This document shows positions 25,351 through 31,437 of a stretch of 64,000 nt of DNA, piece by piece (the stretch's first letter is position 1; every line of letters starts with the position of its first letter). The notes under the pieces are model-generated. The model was not told where the DNA came from. It saw nothing but the letters and a program-made list of their open reading frames with translations, and ran no database searches. A program made the translations under genes and the position numbers. Source of the stretch: Candidatus Shapirobacteria bacterium (GTDB lineage Bacteria; Patescibacteriota; Microgenomatia; UBA12405); NCBI GenBank assembly GCA_022837635.1, contig JALHFY010000001.1, positions 23,562 to 87,561 of the forward strand, read 5' to 3'.

Positions 25351-25938
25351 TTAGATTTCAATCCAGCTAAAGTAAGTAGTTTTGTCAGGTTGGGTTTCTT
25401 TATAGCCAGTTTTGACTATCTGAGAGGGATTTAATTGTGTTTCATAAAAGAAACCGCGGTATTCGCTATTGAGGCCGGGATAACTAAGAGATGTACGTTT
25501 TGTTTGTGTGGTGCTAGTTGGTTGAAGAAATAAATTGTCGTTTCTAATACCAAGTTCTTCAGCCAGAGCTCTAAGAGCAGCTTTTTCGGGTTGTTCCCCA
25601 ATGTGTATTTTTTCGCTAACAGCACCGGTGGCATAATGTCTGGTTCTAATTCTTTCTTGGAGAGTGTTTTCATTGAAGACCTGTTTTTCTTCGATGAGTT
25701 GGTGCTTTTTGCCATCAAAAAATCCCAAAACATTGATGTCAACAAAATCAACTCTTCTGGTGAGCTCATTATTTTGAGATGTGAGATAACTATCGTGATT
25801 TTTTAACTCTTCAAAGAGGTGTTGAGGGGTTTTTGCGTAACCTTTTCCCCATTCGTTAATAGATATGTTAAATTTTTTAAGGATAGAGATTAGTGAAGGG
25901 AGGTCGGCGGGGACAGTGATTAACTGAGCTTCAATCAT
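25351..25938 (-). CDS. Hypothetical protein with a Nudix-box-like motif. The start is the ATG at 25938, not the longer ORF in the track
   Basis: GEQPEKAALRALAEELGI approximates the GX5EX7REUXEEXGU Nudix box. The upstream ORF extension is a translation of tRNA repeats. Confidence 0.3.
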   Translation of the reverse strand: MIEAQLITVPADLPSLISILKKFNISINEWGKGYAKTPQHLFEELKNHDSYLTSQNNELTRRVDFVDINVLGFFDGKKHQLIEEKQVFNENTLQERIRTRHYATGAVSEKIHIGEQPEKAALRALAEELGIRNDNLFLQPTSTTQTKRTSLSYPGLNSEYRGFFYETQLNPSQIVKTGYKETQPDKTTYFSWIEI

Positions 25939-26085
25939 GTGGACCCAAGGGGACTCGAACCCCTGACCTGTCCGATGTCCATCGGACCGCGTTGACAAAT
26001 GGATAACATACTGTGAACCCAAGGGGACTCGAACCCCTGACCTGTCCGATGTCCATCGGACCGCGTTGACAAATGGATAACATAC
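25938..26085 (-). repeat. Two tandem 74-bp units, each made of the 3' 31 nt of tRNA-Ala fused to a 24-nt palindromic core
   Basis: Unit starts are at 25938 and 26012. The core tgacctgtccgatgtccatcggac lies at 25964-25987 and 26038-26061. Confidence 0.85.
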
Positions 26086-26087
26086 TG

Positions 26088-26160
26088 TGGACCCAAGGGG
26101 ACTCGAACCCCTGACCTTCCCCATGCCATGGGGACGCGCTACCAACTACGCTATGGGCCC
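26088..26160 (-). tRNA. tRNA-Ala (anticodon GGC)
   Basis: Cloverleaf GGGCCCA..TTGGCAT loop..GGTTCGAGTCC..TGGGTCCA. Confidence 0.85.
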
Positions 26161-26186
26161 AAAAGGTAGGTATATTTTAACAAAAC

Positions 26187-26260
26187 TGGCAGGCCCATGA
26201 GGATTCGAACCTCAAATAAAGGTTTTGGAGACCTTGGTGATACCATTTCACTATGGGCCT
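26187..26260 (-). tRNA. tRNA-Trp (anticodon CCA), with an encoded CCA 3' end
   Basis: AGGCCCATAGTGAAATGGTATCACCAAGGTCTCCAAAACCTT...GGTTCGAATCC. Confidence 0.85.
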
Positions 26261-26294
26261 GGATTATGTATTTTATCATTGATATATTACACCA

Positions 26295-26864
26295 ATGAGT
26301 CGAAGTAGGTTAATTTTAGGAATTACGGGAACAAATGGAGCGGGAAAGGGGACGGTGGTGGAGTATTTAGTTAAAAATCATGGTTTTGCACATTTTAGCG
26401 CCAGTGCTTTGATCAGTGAGGAAATTGAAAAAAGAAAAATGCCGGTAAACAGAGAATCAATGATAGAGGTGGGCAATGATTTGAGAGCCAAATTTGGAGC
26501 CGGTTTTATTGCTCAAGAATTGATTAAAAGAGCATCACAAACAGACAAGAATGCGATTGTGGAGAGTATTAGAACTGTAGGAGAAATAGAAAAACTGCGT
26601 GAAGTTGGGGGAATTTTACTGGCAGTTGATGCTTTGCAGAAATTAAGATACGAGAGAAATTTGAAACGGGGTAGTAATAAAGATAATGTGATTTGGGAGG
26701 AGTTTGTGGATCAAGAATTAAGAGAATCAGAGTCGACTGATCCGAATAAACAGAACTTGATAGCTTGCAGGGACAGAGCGGATTATCGATTGGAAAATAA
26801 TGGCAGTTTGGAAGATTTATATGAACAAATAGAAAAAATATTAAATATTATTAAAAACAAATGA
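26295..26864 (+). CDS. P-loop NTPase, putative nucleotide / nucleoside monophosphate kinase
   Basis: Walker A GITGTNGAGKGT. Confidence 0.45.
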   Translation: MSRSRLILGITGTNGAGKGTVVEYLVKNHGFAHFSASALISEEIEKRKMPVNRESMIEVGNDLRAKFGAGFIAQELIKRASQTDKNAIVESIRTVGEIEKLREVGGILLAVDALQKLRYERNLKRGSNKDNVIWEEFVDQELRESESTDPNKQNLIACRDRADYRLENNGSLEDLYEQIEKILNIIKNK

Positions 26865-27349
26865 GCAAAAAATATCAAAGACCAAGTTGGGACGATTATT
26901 TTTTTGAGGTAGCCGATGCTATTTCTAAACGGGCTACTTGTGATCGAGGTAGAGCTGGCAGTGTCGCTGTTAAAGATAATCAAATTTTAGTAACTGGTTA
27001 TGTGGGTTCGCCGGTGGGTTTTCCTCATTGTGATGAAGAAGGCCATGATTTAAGAAAGGTGCTCCATGAAGATGGTAGTATCAGCCAACATTGTATGAGA
27101 ACAGTACATTCGGAGCAGAATTTAATTTGTCAAGCAGCCAAAAGAGGAGTTTCTCTGGATGGAGCCACAGTGTATACCCGGATGACTCCTTGTCGAACTT
27201 GTGCCATGCTTTTGATTAATTGTGGAGTAAAAAAAGTTTTTTGTGAAAGAAAATATCACACTGGTAGTGAAACTGAAGAGATGTTTAAGAGAGCGGGAAT
27301 AGAATTGGTTTATAAGTATGATGAAGTTCAGAAGTATCCGAATCAGTAA
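26861..27349 (+). CDS. dCMP / cytidine-family deaminase
   Basis: HCDEEGH...HSEQN...PCRTC zinc-binding motifs. Confidence 0.75.
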   Translation: MSKKYQRPSWDDYFFEVADAISKRATCDRGRAGSVAVKDNQILVTGYVGSPVGFPHCDEEGHDLRKVLHEDGSISQHCMRTVHSEQNLICQAAKRGVSLDGATVYTRMTPCRTCAMLLINCGVKKVFCERKYHTGSETEEMFKRAGIELVYKYDEVQKYPNQ

Positions 27350-27375
27350 TTAACTTTGTTATACAAAGTTAACTT

Positions 27376-27882
27376 ATGAAATACTTTGAAGCTAATTATA
27401 AAATCGTCGAAGGGATTAGTGAAAAAAATATTGAGGAGTTGATTTTATTCAGTCGTCAAGATGAAGAGGTATTGAAGTTTACCGGGGATAGGGAAAGATT
27501 TGCGAATAGAGAGAAATTTGACCAATGGTGTGAAAAAGGAAGATATATTTATACTTTGGTTGATCAAGAGGGTAAATTAGGTGGAATTGTGTGGTTTGGG
27601 GAGAAAGAGGGAGCTTGGACATTGGCCATCAGGATGTATGGAGCGGCTAGGGGCAGAGACTGGTCCTATGATTTTTTATCCGAGTCGATGAAAAAATTGA
27701 TGGAAAGAAAGGTGTTTAAGACATCGATGGTTAAGGATTGGTGGTTGGAATGTAGTGAAGATAATATGCCGGCGAGAAAATTATACGAAAAAATGGGATT
27801 CAAGCTGAGCGGAAAAGGAAAGGAAGAGGGGAAGATTATTTACCGCCGGAGCCACGACTTTGGGTCCGAAAAGAAGAATTGA
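27376..27882 (+). CDS. GNAT-family N-acetyltransferase
   Basis: C-terminal NMPARKLYEKMGF motif. Confidence 0.6.
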   Translation: MKYFEANYKIVEGISEKNIEELILFSRQDEEVLKFTGDRERFANREKFDQWCEKGRYIYTLVDQEGKLGGIVWFGEKEGAWTLAIRMYGAARGRDWSYDFLSESMKKLMERKVFKTSMVKDWWLECSEDNMPARKLYEKMGFKLSGKGKEEGKIIYRRSHDFGSEKKN

Positions 27883-28026
27883 AACGGTTGTTGTTAAATT
27901 TAGGTAAATTGGGACGGCTTTGAAATTGGGGGTTTTGGAAAGGTGATTGTGGTTTGAAAGGTCTAGGATTGGGAGGAGTTACCGGTGTGGTTTTTTTAGG
28001 TTCTTGTTGAGTAGTCATATCTGAGT

Positions 28027-28803
28027 TTATTTTAGCAGATTTAAGAAACGATCTATGCCTAGACCCACACCACTGCAAAGTGAGAGGCGGCTGCAATAAT
28101 CGATAAAATCGGTGGAAATAGGATGGAGGGGTAGATGATGTTGCTGGCGATATTCTTTTTCCGCTTCAAAAGCGGATTTAATAGAATTGGTATCGGTATT
28201 TTCGACGCAACCATTGGCGATTTCGATGCCGTTGATGTAAAGTTCGAAACGATCGGCAATGGTTTGACCTGTCGAATTATCGACAGGTTTAGCCAGGGGT
28301 GAGAGATAAGCGGGGTAGCCGGTGACAAAGGTGCCACCTTGATGGGGGAGTTTTGCTTCAATTTCATTGAGAAAGTATTGGTTAAAATCAGCTTCATTTT
28401 GAGGTAGATTGGGGGGGAGTTTGAATTCGGTAAAATCAATTTTAAGAAAATGACGAACAAAATTTTTAGTAAATTTGATTAAATCGGCCAGATTTTGGTC
28501 AGGCAAATACCACTCTAACATGAGAAATTCAGGACTATGAAGCTCATTGCTGGCTTCCAGATCTCGAAAACAATGACCGATAGCAAAGCATTTTTGGCGA
28601 TTTTGAGACAGATGTTTTTTCAAAGCCAGCTCAGGGGAAGCGGGAAGATAAAAAGTTTGCTGTTGATGTTTCCAAATAGTTTCAAAAGAGTAGAGATTGG
28701 GTTCTAGAGGCAGACTAGAATTGAGATAAGGCACCTCAACTTCGACAAAGCCCCGGCGCCAAAAGTATTTCCTAATGGACTTTAATAATTCAGACTGTGT
28801 CAT
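28027..28803 (-). CDS. Class II aminoacyl-tRNA-synthetase-like core protein (EpmA/PoxA/GenX-like or a truncated KRS/NRS/DRS catalytic domain)
   Basis: Motif 2 CFRDLEASNELHSPEFLMLEWY and motif 3 GVGLGIDRFL. Confidence 0.55.
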   Translation of the reverse strand: MTQSELLKSIRKYFWRRGFVEVEVPYLNSSLPLEPNLYSFETIWKHQQQTFYLPASPELALKKHLSQNRQKCFAIGHCFRDLEASNELHSPEFLMLEWYLPDQNLADLIKFTKNFVRHFLKIDFTEFKLPPNLPQNEADFNQYFLNEIEAKLPHQGGTFVTGYPAYLSPLAKPVDNSTGQTIADRFELYINGIEIANGCVENTDTNSIKSAFEAEKEYRQQHHLPLHPISTDFIDYCSRLSLCSGVGLGIDRFLNLLK

Positions 28804-28818
28804 ATATTTGTTGGTTTA

Positions 28819-28905
28819 TATATATCGAAAATATAATTTTGCCGTGCTCACGCGCTGGCGGCTTCGCCTGGCATGATTGCGCGTGGAAAATTATATTTTC
28901 GATAT
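28819..28905. repeat. Long AT-rich inverted repeat (about 22-bp arms atatcgaaaatataattttgcc / ggaaaattatattttcgatat) enclosing a 41-nt GC-rich loop
   Basis: Read directly. It lies between two minus-strand genes. Confidence 0.6.
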
Positions 28906-28914
28906 TACCATAAT

Positions 28915-29835
28915 TTATGGTTTTAAATTGCAAAAATAATGAGGGTCGGGGCAGAGAGGAGAGGCGAGGTAACGAGATAAATAGTTGGTGACGATTACAG
29001 AAATAGGGTCGGAAAGGGAGCCGAGTTTGAGGGCGGATTCACAACAAGGATAAAAATTACCGTTTGATTGTAAGGAGAGCATGGCACAGCCGAAATTTTT
29101 TGGTGGATAGACAGGGTATTTTTGGCGAATATGTTTAACTTGAGCCGGAGTGAGAGAACCGAGACGGTCGGTTAAAAAAGTGAAATTAAGAGCTTTAGAA
29201 CTATAGAGCTTTAGAGCTTTAGAGAGGGATTGGGGGAAGGAATGGCGGTAGGGATAGGAGTCTTTGGTGATTAGATAAAAAATTTCCACTGGAAAATCGA
29301 GTTGGAGGGCATGTTTGACAAAGTTAAGACTTTTTTGAAAATTACCGGAGCCACGGTTGTGGTCATGAATTTTTTGGGGGCCGTCAAAGGAAACAATGAG
29401 TTGACAATTTTTTGGATCTGTAATTTGGTCTAACTTATCAATAGTGCCGTTGGTGATTATGGTGATAAAAATGTTTTTTTTGAGCAGAGTGTTGACCAGA
29501 CGGGGAAAAGAGGGGAGGGTAAAAACTTCACCTCCACAAAAAATGATAGATTTCAATTTAAGCTTCTTGTCAACGAATTTTTTGCCTTCGGCCAATCCGT
29601 TACCGGGTTGGATGTTGTCAAAAAATTGTTGACTGCGAAACTTTGATAAAAAAATGTGATAGCGGTTGACAAATTTTAAGATTTGCCGGTTGTTTAGGAT
29701 ATTTTTGGTCTTGCGGGTATAGCAATAACGACACCGGAGATTACAGAGCTCCAAGGGAGAAATGTAGATATTTTCCAGGCTAGAAATTATTTTAGCTTGG
29801 TTGATTCTTTGTGTTCGGTATTTTTTTTGCACCAA
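28915..29835 (-). CDS. Radical SAM protein with a SPASM-like C-terminal Cys cluster
   Basis: CNLRCRYC near the N-terminus and GCAMLSLQSNGNFYPCC at the C-terminus. Confidence 0.7.
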   Translation of the reverse strand: MVQKKYRTQRINQAKIISSLENIYISPLELCNLRCRYCYTRKTKNILNNRQILKFVNRYHIFLSKFRSQQFFDNIQPGNGLAEGKKFVDKKLKLKSIIFCGGEVFTLPSFPRLVNTLLKKNIFITIITNGTIDKLDQITDPKNCQLIVSFDGPQKIHDHNRGSGNFQKSLNFVKHALQLDFPVEIFYLITKDSYPYRHSFPQSLSKALKLYSSKALNFTFLTDRLGSLTPAQVKHIRQKYPVYPPKNFGCAMLSLQSNGNFYPCCESALKLGSLSDPISVIVTNYLSRYLASPLCPDPHYFCNLKP

Positions 29836-29966
29836 CGACAGTATTTATTGAACTTCAACTTATCAGGAGTATTAGTCTTGTTTTTTTCGGTCAAATAATT
29901 TTGAGCGCCACAGACTGAACAGTTGAGGGCGAGTAAAATACGAGGTGTTTTTTTTGCTTTGGACAT
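29797..29966 (-). CDS. rpmG: 50S ribosomal protein L33. It is absent from the ORF track because it is under 60 aa
   Basis: Translation MSKAKKTPRILLALNCSVCGAQNYLTEKNKTNTPDKLKFNKYCRWCKKNTEHKE. It overlaps the radical SAM start by about 39 nt. Confidence 0.8.
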
Positions 29967-29978
29967 GGGGCTATTTTA

Positions 29979-30761
29979 TCAATTAATTAAATGGCCGTCA
30001 AAGGCAGTTTTTGCTAAGGTATCGCAAAAGAACTCGCTACCTAGATCAGATGGGTGAATGTTGCTACCGGAATCAATCAGTTCCGGAAAACCGTCTTGAT
30101 TGATTAAACTAGGGCGATAGGCGTCAGCTAGGGATAGTTGATTTTTTTGACTGAAAGCGATGAAATTATCTAAATACAGTTTAATAGTGTTAGTTTTTTC
30201 AATTTTATCCATAGCGGTGAAATGGAGATTACTAAGACCATTGCCAAAGGTGACCGAATTGGGGGCAATAGTGGCGGCCATCATGATTTTGGTCTGAGGT
30301 AAGGAAGTTTTGATGGTGGAAATAATTTTTTCCAGTTCCTGCAGGTAGCGATTGAGACTGTTTTGAGAATTACCCAAATGATTGTAGGCAAAAGATTCGA
30401 GAATAATCAGGTCCGGTAATTGGGAGATAATAGAGGGATTTTGTTGATCCAGATAGCGAGTGCTTTGGGTTAAACGGTCGTAGGCGCTTTCGATAGTGGT
30501 GGCGCCATAACCATATTTGAGAAAATTGATTTGGGTTTGGGGATAGTATTTTTGAAAAGATTTTTGACAGAGATCGAGATTGAGAGTGTCAATCATGGAA
30601 TCACCTAGGAGAACAATTTTTTTGATTTGGGTTTGAGTACCTAGAACGGCTGGGGCGCTGGTGGGTAGAACTGGAGTGGGGGTGGGGGATACGGGAGTAG
30701 AAGCTACCGGTTTGTAGGCTTGAAGAAGTTGATAATAGAGAGGCACAATAGCTAAGAGCAT
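29979..30761 (-). CDS. SGNH/GDSL-family hydrolase, probably secreted
   Basis: GDS motif VLLGDSMID with a Pro/Thr-rich N-terminal linker. Confidence 0.6.
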   Translation of the reverse strand: MLLAIVPLYYQLLQAYKPVASTPVSPTPTPVLPTSAPAVLGTQTQIKKIVLLGDSMIDTLNLDLCQKSFQKYYPQTQINFLKYGYGATTIESAYDRLTQSTRYLDQQNPSIISQLPDLIILESFAYNHLGNSQNSLNRYLQELEKIISTIKTSLPQTKIMMAATIAPNSVTFGNGLSNLHFTAMDKIEKTNTIKLYLDNFIAFSQKNQLSLADAYRPSLINQDGFPELIDSGSNIHPSDLGSEFFCDTLAKTAFDGHLIN

Positions 30762-30806
30762 ATTTATATTTCAGGATATCATTTATTGATATAATGGGCT
30801 GTATTA

Positions 30807-30893
30807 GGAGGGTTGGCCGAGTGGTTTATGGCGCTAGTTTTGAAAACTAGTGAGCGCAAGCTCTCAGGGGTTCGAATCCCTTACCCTCCGCTG
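30807..30893 (+). tRNA. tRNA-Ser (anticodon TGA), long variable arm
   Basis: GGAGGGTTGGCCGAGTGG...CTAGTTTTGAAAACTAG...GGTTCGAATCC. Confidence 0.85.
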
Positions 30894-30920
30894 AAAAGTT
30901 TCTTGAGAAAAATTTATATT

Positions 30921-30975
30921 GAGCCTGGAATGGAATTTGAATCCATGACCTGTCCGATGTCCATCGGACTGCTCG
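30921..30975 (-). repeat. Duplicated 3' half of tRNA-Thr (T-arm plus acceptor 3' strand) fused to the 24-nt palindromic core
   Basis: gagcctggaatggaatttgaatccatgacc is identical to the 3' end of the intact tRNA-Thr at 31245-31274. The core lies at 30946-30969. Confidence 0.85.
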
Positions 30976-30976
30976 A

Positions 30977-31243
30977 TTAAAATGATTTGGTTATTTTTTG
31001 ATTCGCAATAATTTGTTCAATTAAAGTTTTACTTTTTTGTCGTTTGAGCCAAAATTCAATTTTTCGAGCCATTGTTAATGTTGGATATTCCTGTTGAAAG
31101 ACGAGTTTAAGGGGTAAAGAAAAACTGGTGTAAGTGCTGCGTCCACTAAGATGTTCTTGAAGTCGGCGATTTAAATCAGCGGTGCTACCAATGTAAAAAC
31201 GAGAGTTTTTGAGAGATTGGAGAATATAAACGTAGGCAGACAT
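30977..31243 (-). CDS. GIY-YIG nuclease-domain protein. The start is the ATG at 31243
   Basis: MSAYVYILQSLKNSRFYIGSTADLNRRLQEH. The longer ORF in the track runs into the tRNA. Confidence 0.75.
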   Translation of the reverse strand: MSAYVYILQSLKNSRFYIGSTADLNRRLQEHLSGRSTYTSFSLPLKLVFQQEYPTLTMARKIEFWLKRQKSKTLIEQIIANQKITKSF

Positions 31244-31244
31244 T

Positions 31245-31318
31245 GAGCCTGGAATGGAATTTGAATCCATGACCTTCCCCTTACCAAGGGGATGCTCTAC
31301 CAACTGAGCTATCCAGGC
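31245..31318 (-). tRNA. tRNA-Thr (anticodon GGT)
   Basis: GCCTGGATAGCTCAGTTGGTAGAGCATCCCCTTGGTAAGGGGAAGGTCATGGATTCAAATTCCAT... Confidence 0.85.
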
Positions 31319-31320
31319 AA

Positions 31321-31437
31321 ATTGTTAATCCATGACCTGTCCGATGTCCATCGGACTGCTCTCAACTGAGCCATGAGTCAAAGTTAATCCATGACCTGTC
31401 CGATGTCCATCGGACTGCTCTCGCCTCTAGGCTGGCT
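31321..31437 (-). repeat. Two tandem pseudo-tRNA units (about 59 nt each). Each has a D-arm-like segment, then the palindromic core in place of the anticodon arm, then a truncated T-arm
   Basis: Both units share the exact 41-mer gttaatccatgacctgtccgatgtccatcggactgctctc. The cores lie at 31334-31356 and 31393-31415. Confidence 0.8.

Follow-up and report, generated by a model that had tools for sequence, protein, structure and literature searches.

tRNA genes are among the most conserved sequences of genomes, and bacteria of the Candidate Phyla Radiation (CPR) usually carry one copy of each. Tyrosine-integrase elements leave direct repeats of the tRNA 3′ half next to the intact tRNA. The closest precedent for the element described here is the phage protein SegB, a free-standing GIY-YIG endonuclease whose cut site within tRNA genes is RAWTSGAAC and which drives the recombination-dependent tandem amplification of the tRNA together with segB (PMC13096335). 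As we read it, this motif would be the reverse complement of the T-loop sequence GTTCGAATC. In CPR bacteria, GIY-YIG open reading frames (ORFs) have been reported in insertions of rRNA genes that are not group I or group II introns and that lie at the tops or bases of stem-loops; that study treats rRNA genes only and never mentions tRNA (PMC11270868). Here, we analysed a 64,000-nt stretch of DNA (the window) from contig JALHFY010000001.1 of a Candidatus Shapirobacteria bacterium, in which a 24-nt palindromic repeat is embedded in tRNA-derived sequences at two places, named the Ala locus and the Thr locus after their intact tRNA genes. We consider that the five copies of the repeat are probably disabled partial tRNA-gene duplicates, the by-products of a selfish element of the ultra-small Patescibacteria, another name for CPR bacteria, organised around a stand-alone GIY-YIG gene of about 90 amino acids. 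It is best read as a nuclease element of a homing-like kind that is associated with tRNA genes and whose hairpin would mark the disabled duplicate halves. Judged from sequence, the Thr locus is a complete example of the element with two 5′ fragments, and the Ala locus consists of two 3′ units without the nuclease.

The 24-mer TGACCTGTCCGATGTCCATCGGAC occurs on the + strand at positions 25964, 26038, 30946, 31333 and 31392. No further copy with up to three mismatches was present in the window, and 100 dinucleotide-preserving shuffles gave no match to the 24-mer. The five-fold recurrence described in an earlier note on this DNA was therefore borne out, with its last two coordinates corrected by one position. 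Because the local tRNA genes predicted by ARAGORN sit on the minus strand (Ala(GGC) at 26087-26160, Trp at 26187-26260 and Thr(GGT) at 31245-31318), the repeat must be read as its reverse complement. In the tRNA sense, it consists of an 18-nt hairpin, hereafter P (GTCCGAT-GGAC-ATCGGAC), followed by AGGTCA. P has a 7-bp stem and a 4-nt loop, with a computed DNA folding free energy of -5.5 kcal/mol, and AGGTCA, a sequence common to tRNA-Ala(GGC) and tRNA-Thr(GGT), covers the variable loop and the first base of the T stem. The 5′ neighbour of P in the five window copies is always made of residues of the D-stem 3′ strand and position 26 (GAGCA or CGCG). With the variable loop on one side and the D-stem and position 26 on the other, P replaces the 17-nt anticodon arm (positions 27-43) and both boundaries are exact, so the junction is as precise as the earlier note had held. 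The copies at 25964, 26038 and 30946 are joined to a complete tRNA 3′ half (positions 44-76), at most one base off the neighbouring intact tRNA, and in those at 31333 and 31392 this half is represented by just 12 nt (AGGTCATGGATT), fused to D-arm-like 5′ pieces. Thus, of the claim that the palindrome is always fused to a tRNA 3′ portion, it stands that every copy adjoins the variable loop and T stem, but two copies turned out to be 5′ fragments. That the hairpin is foreign to the tRNAs was confirmed, as it is found on Ala and Thr bodies here and on Val, Asp, Ile, Pro, Gly, Arg and Met bodies elsewhere. A derivation of P from the anticodon arm of tRNA-Val(GAC) (ATGGACAT versus ATTGACAT) was considered and dropped, since the loop varies freely (GAAC, GTAC, GGCC, AATT and others). 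None of the hairpin units of the window was scored as a tRNA by ARAGORN or by Rfam RF00005 at E<=1; the Rfam scan of the region returned true tRNAs only, with no family spanning the units, and promoter and terminator scans of the region gave nothing above chance. On the minus strand at 31321-31350, the hairpin-loop sequence TGGACA, 18 nt and AACAAT precede tRNA-Thr, forming a 9/12 sigma-70-like match that is no better than those of shuffled sequences.

At the Thr locus, all components lie on the minus strand and follow each other, in the sense direction from 31436 to 30920, as fragment A, fragment B, a 7-nt spacer, tRNA-Thr(GGT), the nuclease ORF and fragment C. Fragment A (31386-31436) comprises a diverged 5′ half (GCCAGCCTAGAGGC through to GAGAGCA), which is 6 nt shorter than in sister assemblies, P at 31398-31415 and AGGTCATGGATT, that is, the variable loop, the T-stem 5′ strand and TT. 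Fragment B (31327-31379) is built likewise from a diverged 5′ half (GACTCATGGCTCAGTTGAGAGCA), P at 31339-31356 and AGGTCATGGATT, and ends in the T loop. The intact tRNA-Thr(GGT) (31245-31318; ARAGORN, and 72 bits with Rfam) is the functional copy of the module. Its 3′ end is followed, 2 nt later, by the ATG of a gene for an 88-aa GIY-YIG protein (30977-31243), a UPF0213/Slx1-like minimal nuclease matching PF01541, whose stop codon lies 2 nt ahead of fragment C (30920-30974). The latter contains GAGCA (the D-stem 3′ strand plus position 26), P at 30952-30969 and a 3′ half identical to that of tRNA-Thr(GGT). The earlier note had overlooked this gene; it had seen no adjacent integrase and suggested that the actor may be encoded elsewhere, with RAYT-type HUH transposase remnants as a speculative candidate. 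This was not sustained, because the GIY-YIG gene is located inside the Thr locus between two repeat copies and we found no evidence tying RAYT/HUH or an integrase to the units.

The Ala locus, also on the minus strand, carries two 3′ hairpin units of 74 nt and no nuclease gene. The distal unit (25939-26012) is composed of a 25-nt spacer ending in CGCG, P at 25970-25987 and a complete copy of the tRNA-Ala 3′ half (25939-25969). The proximal unit (26013-26086) is 99% identical to it, with P at 26044-26061 and one mismatch in the 3′ half (GGGTTCAC). Next to it lies the intact tRNA-Ala(GGC) (26087-26160; ARAGORN, and 64.7 bits with Rfam RF00005), whose 3′ half is the one duplicated in both units. 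An empty allele of this locus was found in the Logan contig L205 (L-numbers are locus labels), which encodes an identical NUDIX protein and shows 0 mismatches to the window over 1,675 flanking nt. L205 is devoid of exactly the 148 nt of both units, so that CCTTGGGTCCAC is directly joined to ATGATTGAAG. According to this exact empty allele, an Ala unit is made of 43 foreign nt (spacer and P) and a 31-nt duplicate of the tRNA 3′ half. This empty/filled polymorphism shows that the element is dynamic, in line with the inserting or recombining element proposed in the earlier note. We also compared the 25-nt spacer with the nuclease gene as a possible remnant of a deletion, and the similarity was too weak (9/19). 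The ATG of the NUDIX ORF (25936-25938, minus strand) comes directly after the CAC that ends the distal 3′ half copy, and in the empty allele (L205 590-595) it adjoins the real tRNA-Ala. This spacing between tRNA end and ATG is the same as that of the nuclease genes and suggests co-transcription with the tRNA, leaving a nearly leaderless mRNA after RNase Z cleavage.

The protein encoded at the Thr locus matched PF01541 with 49.1 bits (cut-off 22.6; E=7.1e-13), which places it in the GIY-YIG superfamily. Residues Y6, Y17, G19, R27, H31 and E63, among them the catalytic Tyr pair of the GIY and YIG motifs, Arg, His and downstream Glu, were invariant in 16 hairpin-associated proteins and 24 database relatives, and we take Y6, Y17, R27 and E63 to be the equivalents of I-TevI Y6, Y17, R27 and E75. 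The closest solved relative by sequence was UPF0213 1zg2 (E=1.4e-7). An AlphaFold2 model (predicted local distance difference test score, pLDDT, of 89.2) showed the topology E-E-H-E-H-H of the GIY-YIG fold, in which helices flank a three-stranded sheet, and Foldseek ranked UPF0213 1zg2, the Slx1 nuclease domain, plant HIGLE and then I-TevI as its matches, with the UvrC N-terminal domain also among them. The Slx1 nuclease domain showed about 30% identity and a root-mean-square deviation of 2.0-2.7 Å over about 70 residues of the model. The order of these fold matches places the protein nearer to the structure-specific Slx1/HIGLE branch than to the classical homing enzymes. Slx1 cuts branched DNA (flaps, junctions and stem-loops), an activity that, by analogy, would suit a hairpin- or cloverleaf-associated element. 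Slx1 and the UPF0213 proteins (YhbQ, YazA, BH0048) were the best sequence and fold matches, but the protein described here has neither a zinc finger nor an Slx4-like partner and possesses a C-terminal helix of its own (KSRxIIExII), which is conserved and specific to its clade. No mobile-element role for UPF0213 proteins was described in the literature searched. The hairpin-associated nucleases form a single clade, in which tRNA isotypes and host classes are intermixed, and GIY-YIG genes without the hairpin from the same contigs fall outside it. A search of 2.9 million viral contigs returned no full-length relative, only matches to a 30-residue motif, and therefore gave no evidence for a phage vector.

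In order to examine the association from the protein side, 80 metagenome loci were picked by the nuclease protein alone (45-65% identity), blind to the hairpin. An intact tRNA on the same strand was located within 450 nt in 78 of them and usually touched the ORF, either with the tRNA 3′ end a few nt ahead of the ATG or with the ORF running into the tRNA. In 30 of the 80 loci the ORF ended 9 nt inside the downstream tRNA (among others L119, L129, L134, L144, L151-L154, L160, L168, L173, L174, L180, L184-L190 and L194). When four such loci were read base by base (L013, L032, L050 and L088), the stop codon was the TAG formed by U8-A9-G10 of the tRNA itself, which implies that the acceptor stem encodes the last protein residues and that RNase P processing would strip the stop codon from the mRNA. 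Hairpin patterns were present in 49 of the 80 loci, as GTCCGAT-N4-ATCGGAC in 30 and as CCGAT-N3-6-ATCGG variants in 19, and eight of nine remaining loci that were inspected had further variants at the anticodon-arm position, such as GTCCGA-TTGGT-TCGGAC (L117, a relative of the window Thr locus), GTCCGGT-GAAC-ACCGGAC (L122) and CTCCGAC-GTAAT-GTCGGAG (L123). Similarly, a search anchored on the sequences at either side of the anticodon arm in every intact tRNA, irrespective of the sequence between them, revealed that 99 of 112 second flank copies enclosed an NNCCG...CGGNN hairpin; the others were read as mostly arms of neighbouring true tRNA genes. The tRNAs involved were most commonly Val, and also Ala, Asp, Ile, Thr, Pro, Gly, Met, His and Arg.

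Upstream units retained the 5′ half without the 3′ half, and downstream units showed the opposite. Among 124 units, the full 5′ half was kept in 25, all upstream, and the full 3′ half in 22, all downstream, while none matched the neighbouring tRNA over both halves. Fifteen 5′ fragments ended right after the T-loop TT, and mapping of the D-arm stub breakpoints gave no preferred position. Across 30 distinct 18-nt hairpins, 99.5% of the cells were paired and CCG/CGG was invariant. Compensatory changes occurred in four of the seven stem pairs (25 cells, a number reached by 0 of 500 shuffles); this set was partly gathered with a pattern that fixed the inner stem, and the two outer pairs, which were unconstrained, covary. 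Some loci carried full-length tRNA-like genes in which only the anticodon arm was a hairpin (L115 475-551, L116 1335-1411, L162 161-237 and L036 2733-2812). Their acceptor, D and T arms were perfectly paired, ARAGORN called them tRNA-??? with a 4-base anticodon, and they adjoined a tRNA-Val plus nuclease on its upstream side or a tRNA-Ala on its downstream side, with a body unlike that of the neighbouring tRNA. Dead tRNA copies also had sister hairpins inserted in their D loops and T arms (L085, L007, L130 and L139). In L007 (5100-5160), a GIY-YIG gene that does not belong to the hairpin clade is followed downstream by a second tRNA-Phe copy, and the D loop of this copy harboured a different, perfect 20-bp palindrome (CCTGCCTGCCGGCAGGCAGG). 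This palindrome was also seen near other tRNA remnants (L101 at about 4590 and L103 at about 3690), so other palindrome families may fill the same role.

We then took a census of the exact 18-mer in one genome per species, assigning tRNA linkage by reading the flanks. It was found at 104 loci in 126 copies, against about 17 chance matches expected by our arithmetic from the database size, and at only one to three loci in any sampled genome. Thirty-eight loci, with 59 copies, were tRNA-linked and came from many Patescibacteria classes (Shapiro-, Levy-, Davies-, Uhr- and Saccharibacteria, Parcubacteria and others). In OY970181.1, the only complete chromosome sampled, all 14 exact copies were tRNA-linked (L046 and L088). 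As a check on whether the repeat of the earlier note is a tRNA-linked sequence, the census of its hairpin was mixed, since besides these 38 loci about 36 further CPR loci carried the exact hairpin on non-tRNA stems. Most other loci were non-CPR according to their record titles and many lay inside homologous conserved genes. Rfam placed P inside no known RNA family at 19 non-tRNA hairpin loci. At L047 (706-723) the stem capped by the exact hairpin directly follows a 5S rRNA gene, and at L020 (2241-2258) the capped stem is situated about 65 nt ahead of a 16S rRNA gene; a more general link of the hairpin to stable-RNA genes may exist. In three bins labelled Elusimicrobia or Clostridia (L083 468, L090 6964 and L102 1459), the exact 18-mer was seen in a conserved 5′-untranslated-region-like context, in which GTGGGAG, the hairpin and CGCTA.TACCACCAGGAGGAA precede an ATG. 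Typical elements were also observed in bins named ‘uncultured Gammaproteobacteria’ (L003, L027, L036, L060, L063, L076, L091 and L099), with 39-44% GC like the CPR loci. Because the taxonomic labels of these co-assembly bins look doubtful, the host range is not firmly delimited.

The recurring layout, in the sense direction, places a unit made of the 5′ half (1-26), P and a stub of variable loop and T arm on one side, the nuclease ORF and the intact tRNA in either order in the middle, and a unit made of a D-arm stub, P and the 3′ half (44-76) on the other side (L013, L055, L017, L050, L085, L065, L021 and L049). Extra units were present in some cases, one more in L002 and L049 and three 5′ units in L098, and the longest array (L088 4934-6394, in OY970181.1) contained at least 12 tandem units of 94 nt, each formed by a terminator, a D-arm stub, the hairpin and a tRNA-Ala 3′ half. 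The P loop occurred as GGAC or GTCC, being flipped to GGAC in two units of the L088 array, and its orientation followed the 5′ or 3′ type of the unit as a loose trend only, with both direct and inverted pairs present. In L065 the outer halves were Ala-like (G3:U70) around an inner Val tRNA, and outer halves unlike the inner tRNA were also found in L063 and L017, which indicates that the module can carry its own tRNA.

Comparison of contigs encoding an identical L33 protein revealed that the Thr locus is variable as well. The number of 5′ units was one in L213, two in the window, L110, L114 and L209, and three in L098. L098 and L213 share the intact nuclease gene of the window, L209/L210 carry an internal deletion in it, and P of the 3′ unit was intact or decayed among the relatives. 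L206/L207 had no tRNA-Thr(GGT), nuclease or P beside tRNA-Ser, although their upstream genes are likewise different; among the relatives compared, none offered a clean empty site for the nuclease gene. A frameshifted nuclease gene was found in L077. Solo units without a nuclease gene occurred at the Ala locus of the window and in L036, L046, L070 and others. Together, these states make up an apparent cycle of invasion, degeneration and loss of the homing-endonuclease type. The hairpin repeat is also a systematic cause of assembly breaks at the Thr locus. Nine independent short-read contigs sharing the SufC-like gene of the window (L105-L113) terminate near the first hairpin unit, and in seven the break falls at the identical point, 14 nt into the hairpin. 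That short-read unitigs break inside this repeat could raise the suspicion that the structures are assembly artefacts or chimeric joins. However, the same Thr-locus structure was recovered in independent NCBI, ENA, JGI and Logan assemblies (L098, L110, L114, L209, L210 and L213) and the architecture recurs in more than 100 unrelated contigs, a recurrence that rules out such an origin for all practical purposes.

A homing-like mechanism would account for the anatomy of the loci, the association of nuclease, tRNA and hairpin, the compensatory conservation of the hairpin and the polymorphism. The predicted nuclease would break DNA in or near a tRNA gene, and repair templated by the element-bearing copy, with the conserved tRNA halves as homology arms, would copy in the nuclease gene together with an intact tRNA. 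The resident tRNA halves would remain outside as direct repeats, and the CCG...CGG hairpin, by a route that we can only propose, would come to fill the anticodon arm of these outer halves. With the hairpin in place of the anticodon arm, the duplicate cannot decode. The hairpin also interrupts the homology between the dead and live copies, leaving stretches no longer than 26 and 33 nt, and this should make the element more stable. Units would then be gained or lost as the repeats recombine unequally, and the nuclease gene would decay over time.

Several observations weigh against this mechanism. No cleavage site is known for the nuclease, and the element keeps an intact, presumably cleavable tRNA inside, leaving the immunity of the carrier without explanation. 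With 88 aa, the nuclease has no separate DNA-binding domain and its modelled structure is nearer to Slx1/HIGLE than to I-TevI. The full-length arm-swapped cloverleafs (L115, L162 and L036) misfit a simple nested insertion, and the exact arm swap amid dissimilar flanks in L032 (...TATCACG-P-AGATAGC) is hard to obtain by homology alone. The difference between L205 and the window is compatible with a gain or with a precise loss through the repeat. Finally, roughly half of the CPR loci at which the exact hairpin occurs are non-tRNA loci, where it sits atop unrelated intergenic stems with no clade nuclease within 1.5 kb, and they indicate that the hairpin has an existence independent of tRNA remnants.

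The same loci speak for a different view, in which P is an independent, REP-like (repetitive extragenic palindromic) CPR palindrome that spreads to hairpin tips, the tRNA remnants being a favoured landing place and the nuclease a mere neighbour. Such a palindrome would be expected on unrelated stems (L006, L016, L045 and L051) and near 5S and 16S genes, as well as in the D loops and T arms of dead tRNA copies, and it could show loop flips between GGAC and GTCC inside a single array (L088). Yet loci chosen by protein almost always have the hairpin family at the anticodon-arm position, the nucleases without hairpin lie outside the clade, and tRNA genes, which make up less than 1% of the genome, account for 59 of about 96 CPR copies and for every exact copy in OY970181.1. 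For these reasons, we regard an independent palindrome as an unlikely explanation, although it retains some weight. More improbable is that the units are functional RNAs, acting as toxin decoys, as processing or stability signals of the nuclease mRNA, or as tRNAs with an 8-nt anticodon loop. The perfectly paired arms of the full-length units (L115, L116, L162 and L036), the compensatory maintenance of the stem and the long L088 arrays, in which every unit has its own terminator, are in line with a function, and the A-U...A-U around the 4-nt loop mimics U33/A37 of an 8-nt loop. In contrast, most units are truncated and none matches the neighbouring tRNA over both halves, the five window copies all lack a pairable 5′ acceptor strand, Rfam and ARAGORN do not score them as tRNAs, and the sister contig L205 lacks the units with no other change. 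Moreover, hairpin positions 6/13 and 7/12 covary as pairs (GT/AC, AC/GT), so U33/A37 is not conserved as such; together with the truncation of the units, this led us to reject a quadruplet-decoding tRNA with an A-U-NNNN-A-U loop.

Direct repeats of a tRNA 3′ half beside an intact tRNA are also what classical attL/attR scars of an integrase-borne island or prophage would look like. This origin was rejected, and we attach next to no probability to it, because no integrase or recombinase is encoded in the surrounding ORFs and duplicates of 5′ halves are as frequent as those of 3′ halves. In addition, the ‘island’ would measure only about 270-400 bp with a single nuclease ORF, the anticodon arm is replaced by foreign sequence instead of being duplicated, and the viral contigs hold no full-length relative of the nuclease. 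The site-specific mechanism that the earlier note had envisaged, recognising the anticodon-stem/variable-loop region, is possible. A more novel and quite tentative reading is that the CCG...CGG hairpin and the minimal Slx1-like nuclease are a cognate pair, the GIY-YIG equivalent of REP/RAYT, in which the shape of hairpin or cloverleaf DNA would be recognised, the cut made at the base of the anticodon arm, the arm swapped for the hairpin and the tRNA half duplicated. The proposed cut site corresponds to the four-way junction that a tRNA gene would form when folding as single-stranded DNA, and the duplicated half would be bounded exactly by the tRNA terminus. The exact arm replacement in L032 with dissimilar flanks and the full-length arm-swapped copies point towards shape recognition. 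The CCG/CGG core, the symmetric covariation, the clade helix, the occurrence on other stem tips and the sister-hairpin insertions would be equally expected of the symmetric recognition site of a dimeric nuclease.

One further palindromic structure was noted in the window. A perfect 19-nt inverted repeat (ATATCGAAAATATAATTTT) at 28822-28840 and 28887-28905 surrounds a 46-nt GC-rich core between two minus-strand genes and has no sequence relation to P.

Compared with the described systems, the element resembles SegB in that a GIY-YIG gene stands beside tRNA genes of many isotypes, as in the tRNA clusters of T-even phages, and in its tandem unit arrays; the 15 5′ fragments that end after the T-loop TT are in keeping with the SegB cut motif. 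However, SegB is phage-borne and has a C-terminal DNA-binding region, whereas the protein described here is cellular, consists of a catalytic domain of about 90 aa plus one helix and has no relative in the viral contigs, and SegB loci have not been reported with tRNA halves whose anticodon arm is a conserved hairpin. With REP sequences and their REP-associated tyrosine transposases (RAYTs), the element shares a putative enzyme gene flanked by palindrome copies, palindrome variants that track the enzyme sub-clades and, to a limited extent, the intergenic dispersal of a short conserved palindrome. It differs in that the enzyme is a GIY-YIG protein and not a Y1 HUH transposase, that exact copies occupy so few loci per genome and that more than half of the copies are at one exact position of tRNA-derived sequence; no HUH (IS200/IS605-like) protein was found among the neighbours examined, the gene flanked by hairpins being the GIY-YIG one. 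The GIY-YIG insertions of CPR rRNA genes have in common with the element the host group, a stable-RNA gene as target, the non-intron nature and a stem-loop site. Like tyrosine-integrase islands and prophages, the element targets tRNA genes and duplicates part of the tRNA so that a functional gene remains, but it has one small ORF and no integrase, either half can be duplicated and a foreign hairpin sits in the anticodon arm. A literature search that included the hairpin sequence itself and covered subscription papers in part returned no match to the hairpin and no report of hairpin-substituted tRNA halves beside GIY-YIG genes. As a selfish element built on a free-standing GIY-YIG nuclease at tRNA genes, the proposed element would vary a known theme, and its unprecedented feature would be the dedicated hairpin in place of the anticodon arm of the duplicated halves.

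Should this reading be right, the element would, in practical terms, account for recurrent contig breaks and for spurious ‘tRNA-???’ calls among CPR genome bins. It would also supply a naturally minimal nuclease (about 90 aa), perhaps one paired with a defined 18-bp palindrome. If hairpin and nuclease were indeed a cognate pair, they would exemplify a structure-guided invasion of stable-RNA genes, which would also explain why the hairpin occurs near rRNA genes and at the tips of other stems. If the homing-like explanation is true, the SegB-type link between GIY-YIG nucleases and tRNA genes would be extended from phages to cellular genomes, and there may be a connection to the GIY-YIG insertions of CPR rRNA genes, which are so far without explanation. 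The element would borrow the promoter of the tRNA and, in some relatives, also its U8-A9-G10 as a stop codon. Altogether, this would constitute a new way to parasitise an essential gene, in which the element lodges beside the tRNA, keeps one live copy and silences the leftover half by means of a hairpin.

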